A program made the translations under genes and the position numbers. From contig OZ024749.1 of assembly GCA_964016885.1 (NCBI GenBank), forward strand, positions 24,986,001 to 25,050,000: DNA of 64,000 nt, given 5' to 3'. Under the pieces are notes generated by a model, which was given only the letters and a program-made list of their open reading frames with translations, had not been told where the DNA came from and did not search any database. Of the stretch, positions 334-25,747 are shown in pieces. Every line of letters begins with the position of its first letter. The first letter of the stretch is position 1. Source of the stretch: Eledone cirrhosa (taxonomy: Eukaryota).

Positions 334-589
334 AAGAGATGAAATCGAAAATGCAACTGAAGTCTTATTTTTTTTTAAATATATATATTTATTTGGTTCC
401 TTTACCGGTTTCGCAGTTCTTCTGCTTTTCAAAAGGTGAGTTGAGATCGAGGGTCTGTGGTTTTTCTCACATCCATCTCAACTCACCTTTTGAAAAGCAG
501 AAGAACTGCAAAACCGGTAAAGGAACCAAATAAATATATATATTTAAAAAAAAAATAAAACTTCAGTTGCATTTTCGATTTCATCTCTT
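334..589. mobile_element. Non-coding fold-back cassette (family A) in a (TA)n tract; ~114-bp inverted arms, each carrying an HHR
   Basis: 334-447 is the reverse complement of 475-589, with a ~27-nt spacer. Second copy at ~7586-7842; 3' fragment at ~19381-19517. Confidence 0.85.
399..436 (-). ncRNA. Minimal type I hammerhead ribozyme, U3-A8 core variant (family A)
   Basis: Minus strand: CCUU-UUGAAAA-GCAG aagaa CUGC-GAAAC CG GUA^AAGG. Stem I CCUU/AAGG, palindromic stem III ACCGGU. The plus-arm copy at 486-523 has G12A; copies at 7652-7689(-) and 7739-7776(+) are intact. Confidence 0.75.
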
Positions 590-1299
590 TTTATTTATAC
601 TTTCACTCGTGTAGGACACCTCGGTTATTTTTCATTTTGTAAAAAAAACCTAAGTTTCTAATATATATATATATATATATATTATATAAATAGATATATG
701 TATGTATATGTATATATATATATATATATATATATATATATATATATATATATATGTATATATGTGTGTGTGTATGTATATATGTGTGTGCGTGTGTGTG
801 TATATATATATTTGTATATATATATATGTATATATATATATATATGTATGTGTATATATATGTATATATGTGTATGTATATATAAATATATATATATATA
901 TATATATATATATATATATATATATATATATACATGTATATATGTGTGTATATCTATATATGTATGTATATATATATATATATATATATATATATATATA
1001 TATATATATATATATGTATATTTACATATATATGTGTGTACGTGTGTGTGGGTGTATATGTATATATATACATGTGTGTATATATATGTATGTGTGTGTA
1101 TATATGTATATATATGTATTTATATGTATATATATATATATATATATATGTGTATATATGTATGTGTGTATGTATGTCTATATATATATATATATATATA
1201 TATATATATATATGTATGTATATATATATATATATATATGTATATGTATGCATATATTTATATATGTGTGTGTGTATATATATATGTGTATATGTGTAT

Positions 1300-1840
1300 G
1301 TGGGTGTGTCTATGAGTTCGCGCTAGTGTGTGAGTGAGTGCATTTTTTGAATGTGTCTGTTGATTTGGCATACAGTTGAATAGTTTAAGAGAAATTTGAG
1401 GACAATTGTAAGATATGCACTCAATATTTTGAATTTGTCTACAGAATTCTCTAAACCTTTGTCACTTAGTAAAGAATTTAGCTTTTAAAGAATCTCCCTT
1501 TCCCTTAAATCTATCACCATGCCTGACCCCCACTGATTTTATAGACCCTGTTAGCTTAAGAGAAACTTAATAATAAGGATTGGCATGCCATCCTGAACCT
1601 GTTTATAGAATTCTTCTTGCCTTTGTTACTCTAAAAATAAAAATAAACTATAGCTTTGTAGAATTAGCTTTTAAAGAATTCTATCAACCAATGACCTACA
1701 CCCCTACCACTCTCCACCCTCTCCTACCACTCGTAGAGACCTATATACACCATACTTATTTTTTTGATACCCAGATTCCTGATGATTTCTAAAGAATGAA
1801 ACAGTTCTAGTCCTGTAGAATCTCTTCTACATAAAAACTA
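1300..1840 (+). mobile_element. Non-coding PLE-type cassette (family B) ending in an HHR and a (TA)n tail
   Basis: Copies at ~8885-9420 and a diverged copy at ~43330-43860. Inverted partial copies at ~2103-2265 and ~9674-9836. Confidence 0.75.
1773..1823 (+). ncRNA. Type I hammerhead ribozyme (family B)
   Basis: AGAUUC-CUGAUGA-uUUC uaaa GAAu-GAAACAG uucuaguc CUGUA^GAAUCU. Stem I AGAUUC/GAAUCU, stem III ACAG/CUGU, GUA site. Also at 9354-9404(+). Confidence 0.8.
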
Positions 1841-2119
1841 TATATATATACATATATATACATATATATATATACACACATATATATATATATATATACA
1901 TATATATATACATATATGTATATATATATATATGTGTGTATATATATATGTATATATATATATATATATATATATACATATATATAGATGTATATATATA
2001 TATGTATATATATATGTCTGTATATATATATGTGTGTATATATATATATGTATATATATATGAATATATATATGTGTGTATCTATATATATGTATATATA
2101 TATAGTTTTAATATAGAAG

Positions 2120-2170
2120 AGATTCTACAGGACTAGAACTGTTTCATTCTTTAGAAATCATCAGGAATCT
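2120..2170 (-). ncRNA. Type I hammerhead ribozyme (family B, inverted copy)
   Basis: Reverse complement of 1773-1823; also at 9691-9741(-). Confidence 0.8.
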
Positions 2171-2741
2171 GGGTATCAAAAAATAAGTATGGTATATATA
2201 GGTCTCTACAAATGGTAGGAGAGGGTGGGGAGTGGTAGGGGTGAAGGTCATTGGTTGATAGAATTTTTATTTTTATATATATATACATATATATACATAT
2301 ATATATACATATATATATACATATATATATATATATACATATATATATATATATACATATATATATATATATATATATACACATATATATACATATATAT
2401 TCATATGTATACATATATATATATACATATATATATATACATATATATATACATATATATATATATACATATATATACATATATATATACATATATATAC
2501 ATATATATATATATATACATATATATATATACACATATATATATATACATATATATACATATATATACATATATATATATATATATATACATATATATAC
2601 ATATATATATATACATATATATATATATATATATATATATATATATATATATATATATATATATATATATATATATACATACATATATATATATATACAC
2701 ATATATACATGTATATATATATATATATATATATATATATA

Positions 2742-3560
2742 TGAGAGACATAAAATAAGAAAATTATAAAATTAACTTACTTACTAAAATTTCACTCCCA
2801 ACTAATTAGTTTCTGAAATGGAATAAATATACTTTCCGAAGAAAATATAGAGAATTCGTCGTCAGGTTCAGAAACTAATTAGTTGGGAGTGAAATTTTAG
2901 TAAGTAAGTTAATTTTATAATATTCTTATTTTACGTCTCTCATATTATTGTTCGACAACCCCATGCATTGAACCACAAAGTTACTAAGACAAAACCTATA
3001 TATTTGCTAGCATTGATATGAATCTGTATGTATATATATGTTACTAGATATTAATACTTTATAATTATCTCCAAATTATTTGTCGAGCAATATTGGCCAA
3101 GACTGCTACAATGGTAGCAGGAAGGCCGCTGTCTTATTAACAAACCACTTTCCACTGATTGACCTCGATGTCACGTGATTGATTCTTTTTGAATTTGCCA
3201 CCGACGCAGAGGCAGAGATTTTCTCAATGGCTAGGAATTCAGTCTGCGCTTTGCTATTTTCTATACACTGAATTATTTTTGAATAAGTTTCCAGAGTCCA
3301 CGCTATGCCTGGATAATTAGCTGAGAATAGTCTTCCCTGACGACGAAATGATTCTCAATATTTTCTTCGGAAAGTATATTTATTCCATTTCAGAAACTAA
3401 TTAGTTGGGAGTGAAATATTAGTAAGTAAGTTAATTTTATAATTTTCTTATTTTACGTCTCTCATATTATTGTTCTGCAACCCCATGCATTGAACCACAA
3501 AGTTACTAAGACAAAACCTATATATTTGCTAGCATGATATGCATCTGTATGTATATATAT
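2742..3560. mobile_element. Non-coding cassette (family C): inverted piece 2742-2866 plus ~1.3 direct units of ~523 bp
   Basis: gaaactaattagttggg recurs at 2870 and 3393; the left segment is a reverse complement. Duplicate at ~10320-11160. Confidence 0.8.
3332..3411 (+). ncRNA. Type I hammerhead ribozyme with extended stem II (family C)
   Basis: CUUCC-CUGACGA-cGAAAUG...CAUUUCa-GAAAC UAAUUA GUU^GGGAG, with palindromic stem III ACUAAUUAGU. The paralog at 10909-10988 has a mutated core (CAGACGA). Confidence 0.75.
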
Positions 3561-24039: not shown

Positions 24040-24640
24040 GCCCCAACTCTCTTTCATTCTCTCCTTCACTCTCTCTTTCACCCTCCCCTTCTTTCTCTCC
24101 TTCACTCTCTCTTTCACTCTCTCCTTCATTCGCTTCTTCCCTCTCTCTTTCACTCTCCCATTCTCTCTCTCCTTCATTCTCTCTTTCACTCTCCCCATCA
24201 CTCTCCATCACTCTCTCCTTCTCTATCCCCTTCTCTCTATCTCATTCACTCTCTCTTTCACTCTCCCTTTCTCTCTCTCCTTCACTCTCTTTCACTCTCC
24301 CCATCACTCTCTCATTCACTTTCTACTTCACTCTCTGCTTCTCCATCCCCTTCTCTCTCTCTCCTTCACTCTCTTCTTCACTCTGTCCTTCACTCTCTCC
24401 TACCCTCTCTCATTCACTCTCTCACTCCCCTTATATCTGTCTCTTTCTCTCAGTCTGTCTCTCTTTCTACCCCCCGCCTCCTCCTCTCTCTCTCTCTCTG
24501 CAAGTTGTTCATTGAATAGATATTCTTGTTTTGTTTATTGGTCACGGTTAAACCACACGATATTTCTCCCACTGCGGTTTCCTACTCTCTGTCTCTCTCT
24601 CTCTCTCTCTCTCTCTATCTCTCTCTATCTCTCTCCCTCT
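24040..24640. repeat. CT-rich minisatellite / low complexity
   Basis: Repeated ttcactctctcc/ttcactctctct 12-mers and (CT)n. Confidence 0.9.
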
Positions 24641-24857
24641 CTTCATAAATATATATATATATGAATATATATATATATATATGAATATATATATATATAT
24701 ATATATATATATATATATATATATATATATGAAAATATATATAAATATATGAATGTATATATAGTGTATTTTGAAATACACTGTATACTTAATTAAAAGC
24801 ATTTCGAAGAGCTTATGCTATTGTTTTAGAGAAGTGACAGACTCACTTACTTTAATT

Positions 24858-24945
24858 TTCAGCAAACAGGGGAGATAACGCTGACAAGGCCTTGTTTCGC
24901 ATTTATTGATGCTTATCAAAGCCAACTACTCTCCTGTTTGCTGAA
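24858..24945 (-). ncRNA. Type I hammerhead, U3-A8 core, long distal stem I
   Basis: GCU-UUGAUAA-GCAU caauaa AUGC-GAAAC AAGGCCUU GUC^AGC (core 24880-24922). Distal stem UUCAGCAAACAGG/CCUGUUUGCUGAA; 12-nt palindromic stem III. Confidence 0.8.
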
Positions 24946-25029
24946 ATCATGGATGTTTGGTTCTTATAGAATTCTAGTAAATAATCAGGAACTGATTATA
25001 CAGAGCGGTTGCCGGTCAAGCAGAGATTG

Positions 25030-25151
25030 AAAATTAGAATTGGTGCTCTGAAATAGCTATATATATATGAATGTATATATAGTGTATTTCAAAATACACT
25101 ATATATACATTCATATATATATAGCTATTTCAGAGCACCAATTCTAATTTT
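25030..25151. repeat. Near-perfect 122-bp palindrome capping a ~318-bp partial tandem (24745-25100)
   Basis: aaaattagaattggtgctctgaaatagc... is mirrored around 25090/25091. Confidence 0.9.
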
Positions 25152-25699
25152 ATATAAATATATATATATATATATATATTTCAAGGACAATATCGATATA
25201 TAATAAGGATAAGGAGTTGACCGACCCAGTATATTTAGCAATGCTAGGACCGGTTTTATCTCAGTGTACTCAATAGGCAATGTAAGATACATTCCCAGAA
25301 TATACACATAGTTATTCGCTTCAATACAACACACATAAAACGGGTGACTATAATAGTTTCCGGACTCGAGTTCCGGCCACACTTAATGCAGCGGTAAGGT
25401 TCACCAGAGAAACAATTGCAATACGTAATAAACTGTGCTCCGAAGCAGCATAGTGTGTTCAACTGGCATATCGCCCATGGACGCATCTAAGCAACCTTAC
25501 TACAAATATGTATATATATATATATATATATATATATATATAACCAAGCTATAAGCAGAGTAGGATGGAAACAGAAATGAACTCTCTTCTCTGAATGAAC
25601 ATGTATGTGAAAATTAATTTTTGTGCCCTTTTTTATTTTCATTTTTTTAATTATTAGTATCACTATTTGTACAAATATGCAACTCAACAATGTTCTGCA

Positions 25700-25747
25700 T
25701 ATTTGCAATTGACAATGCATATAATGCTGAAACCGGTATTGTAAATA
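25700..25747 (+). ncRNA. Minimal type I hammerhead, U3-A8 core
   Basis: UAUUUGCAA-UUGACAA-uGCAU aua AUGCu-GAAAC CG GUA^UUGUAAAUA; 9-bp stem I, ACCGGU palindrome. Confidence 0.8.

Follow-up and report, generated by a model that had tools for sequence, protein, structure and literature searches.

A 64-kb stretch of the 3.0-Gb Eledone cirrhosa genome (G000:C9:24986001-25050000; hereafter the window) holds hammerhead ribozyme motifs of four families, here called A to D, whose cores read UUGAAAA, UUGAUAA or UUGACAA where CUGANGA is expected, and which therefore carry U3-A8 in place of C3-G8. Has this double change been kept as a working pair or merely multiplied by the elements that carry it, and how many times did it arise? 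Our answer, to which we give a probability of about 70%, is that these are type I hammerheads at the 3′ ends of Penelope-like elements (PLEs) in families A and D and in tandem retrozymes in families B and C, that they are predicted to cut the RNA of their elements, and that they are likely kept paired at positions 3 and 8 by moderate selection. An earlier note on this DNA had placed the three cores at hammerhead core sites, and its coordinates and core readings are right in all four families.

In each family the U3-A8 core is joined by GAAA, by a stem III that is palindromic and by a predicted cleavage site reading GUA or GUC, in a type I arrangement with stem I open. Family A is found at 399..436 on the minus strand (core UUGAAAA, U3 at 432, predicted cut after A403), with 4 bp in each of stems I and II and the palindrome ACCGGU as stem III. 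This motif occupies one inverted arm of an insertion derived from a 5′-truncated PLE 3′ end, the two arms of which lie between TA microsatellites (322..663, approximate ends); the copy in the opposite arm (486..523, plus strand, at 490) carries G12A and is likely inactive. A second copy of the insertion, inside a local segmental duplication, supplies two further intact motifs, at 7652..7689 on the minus strand (U3 at 7685) and, in its other arm, at 7739..7776 on the plus strand (U3 at 7743). Family B (core UUGAUAA) forms a minus-strand tandem retrozyme at 4261..7288, made of 5.1 copies of a 591-bp unit matching at 99%, with hammerheads at 4503-4590, 5094-5181, 5685-5772, 6276-6363 and 6867-6954 (U3 at 4585, 5176, 5767, 6358 and 6949); an inverted 3′ arm on the plus strand (7287..7489) bears another at 7327-7414 (U3 at 7332), and a partial minus-strand unit (8333..8819) one at 8408-8495 (U3 at 8490). 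Its stem I has 5 bp, its stem III is a palindrome of 10 nucleotides, and the predicted cut follows GUC. The family C motif at 24880..24922 on the minus strand (UUGAUAA, U3 at 24919, predicted cut after C24883) has a proximal stem I of 3 bp continued by a long distal helix (z -6.6), a stem II of 4 bp and a stem III palindrome of 12 nucleotides, and belongs to a retrozyme monomer of ~320 bp at 24733..25151 (minus strand, with an inverted terminal piece at 25030-25151) that has tandem copies elsewhere. Family D lies at 25701..25746 on the plus strand (UUGACAA, U3 at 25709, predicted cut after A25738), within a truncated PLE 3′ end inserted between TA microsatellites (25543..25856, plus strand, approximate ends). 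Stems I and II had been described as intact; stem II is imperfect in B, where a U bulges after 2 bp, and in D, where a U.U pair at 10.1-11.1 precedes 3 bp. Stem II is short in A, C and D, and has a long loop in B and in an additional family, E, described below.

The self-duplex of stem III is calculated at -8.3 kcal/mol for A and D, -12.9 for B and -19.5 for C, and for the monomer the hammerhead fold is 7-13 kcal/mol less stable than the minimum in A, C and D, and 1.2 kcal/mol less stable in B; these energies fit the dimer model of PLE hammerheads set out in the accessible text of PMC4209133. Stem III can also close with 3-4 bp within a single molecule in B and C. Under the mechanism that we favour, two copies in a tandem transcript would pair through the palindromic stem III into the active fold, in which U3-A8 would stand in for C3-G8 as an equivalent Watson-Crick tertiary pair; cutting would free monomers, which for B and C may become circles, and the PLE reverse transcriptase and GIY-YIG nuclease would copy the freed monomers into TA microsatellites.

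A strict hammerhead descriptor that leaves positions 3 and 8 free recovered the intact A motifs (U3 at 432, 7685 and 7743) and the C motif (24919) directly; B and D, which escape it because of the bulged stem II and the U.U first pair respectively, were read off the sequence and confirmed by exact search. Applied to a genome sample of 120 evenly spaced 10-kb stretches (1.2 Mb), with five dinucleotide shuffles as control, the same descriptor gave 69 matches against ~2.8 per shuffle, namely 59 C3-G8, 6 U3-A8 (mean 0.4 in shuffles), 2 U3.C8, 1 U3.G8 and 1 G3.A8. Two further scans of the sample, run without shuffle control, grouped 135 matches into 13 multi-locus families (9 C3-G8 and 4 U3-A8) with looser settings, and 171 matches into 16 (12 and 4) with position 4 free. 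For 9 against 4 families, Fisher's test gives p 0.0014 on the assumption of independent families, and 0.018 when the U3-A8 families are taken to represent two origins. The U3-A8 families met in the sample are A, B, C-type and family E. None of the 16 families of the position-4-free scan has an unpaired majority at positions 3 and 8; this result is partly a descriptor effect, because the sample scans overlooked three C3.A8 copies at two loci on account of their stem II.

Genome-wide counts with family patterns in which positions 3 and 8 were set to N, and with the reversed patterns as controls, gave 17,695 matches against 68 for the A/D type, 6,603 against 0 for B and 1,855 against 0 for the C type. 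Cores were tallied by hand in the first 100 listed matches of each pattern, which are the leading positions of a single contig, with paired arms and tandem units among them: the A/D type shows 99 U3-A8 and 1 U3.G8 (only 4 of the 100 being D-like), B likewise 99 and 1, and the C type 98 U3-A8, 1 A3.A8 and 1 C3.A8. For family D, U3, A8 and the U.U pair are kept in 38/38 other aligned copies, picked by similarity. U3-A8 is thus the norm in each of the four families, and the earlier note was correct that a CUGANGA search would miss these motifs, a blindness of standard descriptors already published for PLEs (PMC4209133, accessible text).

The PLE whose 3′ repeat is family A has a single 775-amino-acid frame encoding a reverse transcriptase and then a GIY-YIG nuclease, of which the GIY-YIG domain scores above its cut-off and RVT_1, at 28.5 bits, slightly under its cut-off of 29.6. 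The frame is flanked 5′ by an inverted 250-bp copy of the repeat, 99.2% identical, and the family is young, with 150/150 scored matches 97-100% identical and many 775-amino-acid frames still open. In one young element (L241:5649-8584, minus strand) the start of the frame falls within the antisense, inverted copy of the hammerhead repeat. At four separate loci the motif is preceded, in sense, by an A-type nuclease 1,020-1,452 nucleotides upstream, in an analysis that left out 28/30 young family A loci; a D-type nuclease, related to that of A, lies 634-907 nucleotides upstream of the D motif, also at four separate loci. On their linker and sequence motifs, A and D are presumably of the Neptune type and E of the Nematis type; the first linker cysteine is a tyrosine in the family A copy examined. 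On their sequence, the non-coding tandem units of B (591 bp) and C (~320 bp), with one type I hammerhead each, match the description of retrozymes that lack long terminal repeats (non-LTR retrozymes). A search for the parent of B turned up neither a matching protein nor any clear homology with the 3′ regions of the other families. Assembled contigs from four runs of unrecorded kind were compared with unit B, and two gave unit-length head-to-tail contigs, explicable by tandem DNA. Insertions are seated in TA microsatellites, which are plentiful across the window, often as inverted pairs, and most genomic copies are truncated passengers.

The four families had been called unrelated. This does not stand for A and D, because the proteins of their parent PLEs are 59% identical over the C-terminal part of the reverse transcriptase and 50% identical over the nuclease; the two also have stem III, the cut triplet and a stem-loop II length of 13 nucleotides in common. 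Trees were built with FastTree, and the outgroup's C3-G8 state depends on a single copy whose stem I is poor. The sister PLE family of A and D has a C3-G8 core with a D-like U.U pair. A clade of A and D receives 0.878 local support, and the alternatives that join D or A with the C3-G8 family appear in only 4/100 and 0/100 bootstraps, so that a single origin of U3-A8 in A and D is weakly favoured; speaking against it, the clade itself appears in only 51/100 bootstraps, and A stands as near to D (49.8%) as to its C3-G8 sister (49.2%). The PLE that ends in family E is a distant one, 29-33% identical to that of A on short stretches, and its own sister family is C3-G8, which makes this a separate origin. 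Retrozyme C can be aligned along its entire unit with a C3-G8 retrozyme from which stems I, II and III differ yet still pair, so a third origin is likely. Outside the motif, the 3′ regions of the four families A to D show no clear nucleotide homology to one another. Overall, these comparisons suggest that the swap arose, in all likelihood, two to three times in this genome and not four.

Family E has 5,387 matches, of which the first 100 listed comprise 76 U3-A8 and 24 C3.A8. G at position 8 occurs in only 19/5,387 (14 U3.G8 and 5 C3-G8), and C3 is ~70 times commoner than the comparable single decay A8 to G. The C3.A8 copies have linked diagnostic changes and have mostly kept GAAA, the stems and the cut triplet; examples outside the window are L311, L324, L162, L240, L283, L335 and L337. 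With outgroups included, old U3-A8 copies split off first and three C3.A8 copies cluster (0.833); in an unrooted tree of the 3′ region, C3.A8 copies fall between two U3-A8 groups. These trees do not separate one long episode with reversion from two separate gains. That C3.A8 was a step on the way from C3-G8 to U3-A8 is unsupported, C3.A8 being derived in the outgroup-rooted tree. Identity to the nearest neighbour is 87-95% for full-length C3.A8 copies and >99% for the youngest U3-A8 copies; the C3.A8 subfamily therefore looks older and faded. The aligned family E copies include no C3.A8 copy that is very young. Many family E copies (L289-L307) are short inverted pairs broken inside hammerhead stem-loop II, which suggests a preferred stop of reverse transcription, or a fold-back point, at that place.

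A different departure from the standard core is seen at 33607-33657 on the minus strand of the window, where a hammerhead-shaped motif with the core CAGAAGA combines a closed stem III with a U.U at 10.1-11.1. It belongs to a family with A at position 4, located at the 3′ termini of PLEs whose family is sister to E. All 14 scan matches of this cluster (14/14) are A4, they occupy 11/120 sampled loci (for example L161, L196 and L214), or ~10 per Mb, and few families in the sample are commoner. Literature searches for a U4A or CAGANGA core gave nothing relevant among the matches listed, and the A4 core is possibly odder than the U3-A8 finding itself. A small family with a C4 core (CCGAAGA) has three matches at two sampled loci, one of them L139.

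Several readings compete with the one we favour. Chance look-alikes in AT-rich repeats deserve next to no credence. On their side, no Rfam hammerhead model reaches its gathering score anywhere in the window, its canonical C3-G8 motifs included; below that score there is a weak HH9 match over C only (18.5 bits, E 0.15), and a scan by E-value gave only microsatellite-driven sub-gathering matches among the 150/361 rows listed. Nor is the hammerhead the minimum-energy fold for A, C and D. Chance is nevertheless ruled out by the shuffles (6 U3-A8 matches against 0.4), by the position of the motifs at PLE 3′ ends, like the canonical hammerheads of sister families, and by stems that vary while still pairing. 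At the other extreme, four unrelated and independent gains, with unpaired cores that never spread and strict selection for catalysis proven, could draw on the lack of clear homology among the 3′ regions, on the 0/16 families with an unpaired majority, and on the weakness of the A and D clade, which leaves room for two origins there. The homology of the A and D parents, together with the hammerhead features that these two have in common, and the amplification of an unpaired subfamily in family E largely refute this strong form, and we hold it to be very improbable.

More serious, if still unlikely, is the proposal that the fold is kept for a non-cutting role, such as protein binding or shaping of the 3′ end for reverse transcription, or is hitch-hiking; U3-A8 would then have become fixed in a small number of founders, and copying would have multiplied it under little selection for catalysis. 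It gains from the linked C3.A8 changes in about a quarter of the family E matches, from the abundance of the A4-core family, and from a large PLE clade that spreads without canonical hammerheads (PMC8557442). Several further points weigh against the favoured reading of cutting under selection: in the accessible parts of the papers, minimal PLE hammerheads cleave weakly in vitro (PMC4209133), an anole PLE still inserted normally in vitro when its hammerhead was inactivated by mutation, making cleavage dispensable for insertion there, and no RNA-seq reads ended at the anole PLE cut site (PMC11167929). The anole ribozyme needed protein in order to cut (PMC11167929). Since the unpaired C3.A8 subfamily was also amplified, selection is probably not strict. 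Against a fold without catalysis stand the Watson-Crick 3-8 pair in 16/16 multi-locus families found, the recurrence of the double change in separate lineages with stems still pairing, and the U3-A8 state of the youngest family E copies. Pairing at 3-8 therefore looks favoured, yet not required for spread. The earlier note had treated the paired double change as a mark of selection and set paired against unpaired cores: the covariation of positions 3 and 8 across the 16 families (12 C3-G8, 4 U3-A8 and no unpaired majority in 1.2 Mb) bears this out in part, and the unpaired quarter of the family E tally limits it, going some of the way towards the refutation that the note itself had named.

The U3-A8 finding is an ordinary member of a published variant class. 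In the accessible text of PMC3088659, natural C3-G8 to U3-A8 covariation has been known since 2011 and is said, with reference to earlier work, to be active in vitro, and U10.1-U11.1 mismatches and palindromic stems III are reported in natural hammerheads; the motifs described here resemble these core variants in U3-A8, in the D-type mismatch and in their stems III, and differ from the few scattered examples there in being fixed family-wide in retroelements. The closest precedent is the Cercyon PLEs of Schistosoma mansoni, described in 2014 with ~1,300 U3-A8 against ~2,000 standard hammerheads, the former overlooked by the standard descriptor (PMC4209133). Like Cercyon, the present motifs are type I, lie in PLE terminal repeats, have a palindromic stem III suggesting action as dimers, and occur in thousands of mostly single copies with a core missed by the standard descriptor. 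Unlike Cercyon, they comprise ~30,000 matches in five families across at least two PLE clades plus retrozymes, their stem II is short (A, C, D) or long-looped (B, E), and A to D lack the extra base after A9; the accessible text mentions no Cercyon counterpart of the amplified C3.A8 subfamily of E. Families A and D agree with the Neptune-type endonuclease-positive PLEs of PMC8557442 in their single frame of reverse transcriptase then GIY-YIG, cysteine linker, TA microsatellite sites, 3′ hammerhead and inverted 5′-truncated copy adjoining the element; insertion in TA microsatellites, often as inverted pairs, is described there for PLEs in general. B and C fit the animal non-LTR retrozymes, whose non-coding tandem repeats carry a single type I hammerhead in each unit and have been proposed as PLE derivatives, although the B unit of 591 bp exceeds the typical ~300 bp, and a U3-A8 core was not met for such retrozymes in the accessible parts of these sources (PMC7229834; bioRxiv 10.64898/2026.07.22.740005). 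Searches for C3U with G8A gave no match, and a literature search found no dedicated paper on cephalopod PLE hammerheads.

Other features of the window complete the setting. The segmental duplication (~236-3746 and 7484-11317, 97% over 2.5 kb) surrounds the B array and is interrupted by the B piece at 8333-8819; it may have formed during retrozyme insertion. Canonical C3-G8 motifs occur at 47396, 48024, 61827 and 3337 on the plus strand and at 35230, 2865 and 10442 on the minus strand, those at 47396 and 48024 within a 628-bp tandem repeat (46818-48361). Other PLE families have left GIY-YIG-like fragments at 15046-15537 (minus), 51479-51874 (plus) and 34782-35045 (minus), and the descriptor found no hammerhead downstream of the first two. 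A fragment at 63314-63949 (minus) resembles the open reading frame of a non-LTR retrotransposon, and a dispersed repeat of ~130-200 bp has at least eight copies within 26864-60534.

In itself the U3-A8 swap bears out a base pair that was already known, and its weight is mainly for annotation, since ~30,000 motifs of this genome would escape a CUGANGA search; the remaining interest lies in scale and in a natural series of cores, some paired, some unpaired and some A4. We tentatively read that series, as an account somewhat short of probable, as one genome holding C3-G8, U3-A8 gained at least three times, C3.A8 that arose from a U3-A8 ancestor, reached ~1,300 copies and then faded, and A4 at ~10 per Mb, with the broken cores either still cutting, perhaps aided by protein, or carried by PLEs that spread without cutting. 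The useful addition is a matched set of sister families with either core, a young U3-A8 PLE with many intact open reading frames, and amplified C3.A8 and A4 cores, which makes it possible to test directly whether PLEs and retrozymes need self-cleavage in order to spread, a question that PMC8557442 and PMC11167929 leave open in their accessible parts. If the series is as we read it, either outcome, broken cores that cut or spread that is free of cutting, would bear on what PLE hammerheads are for.

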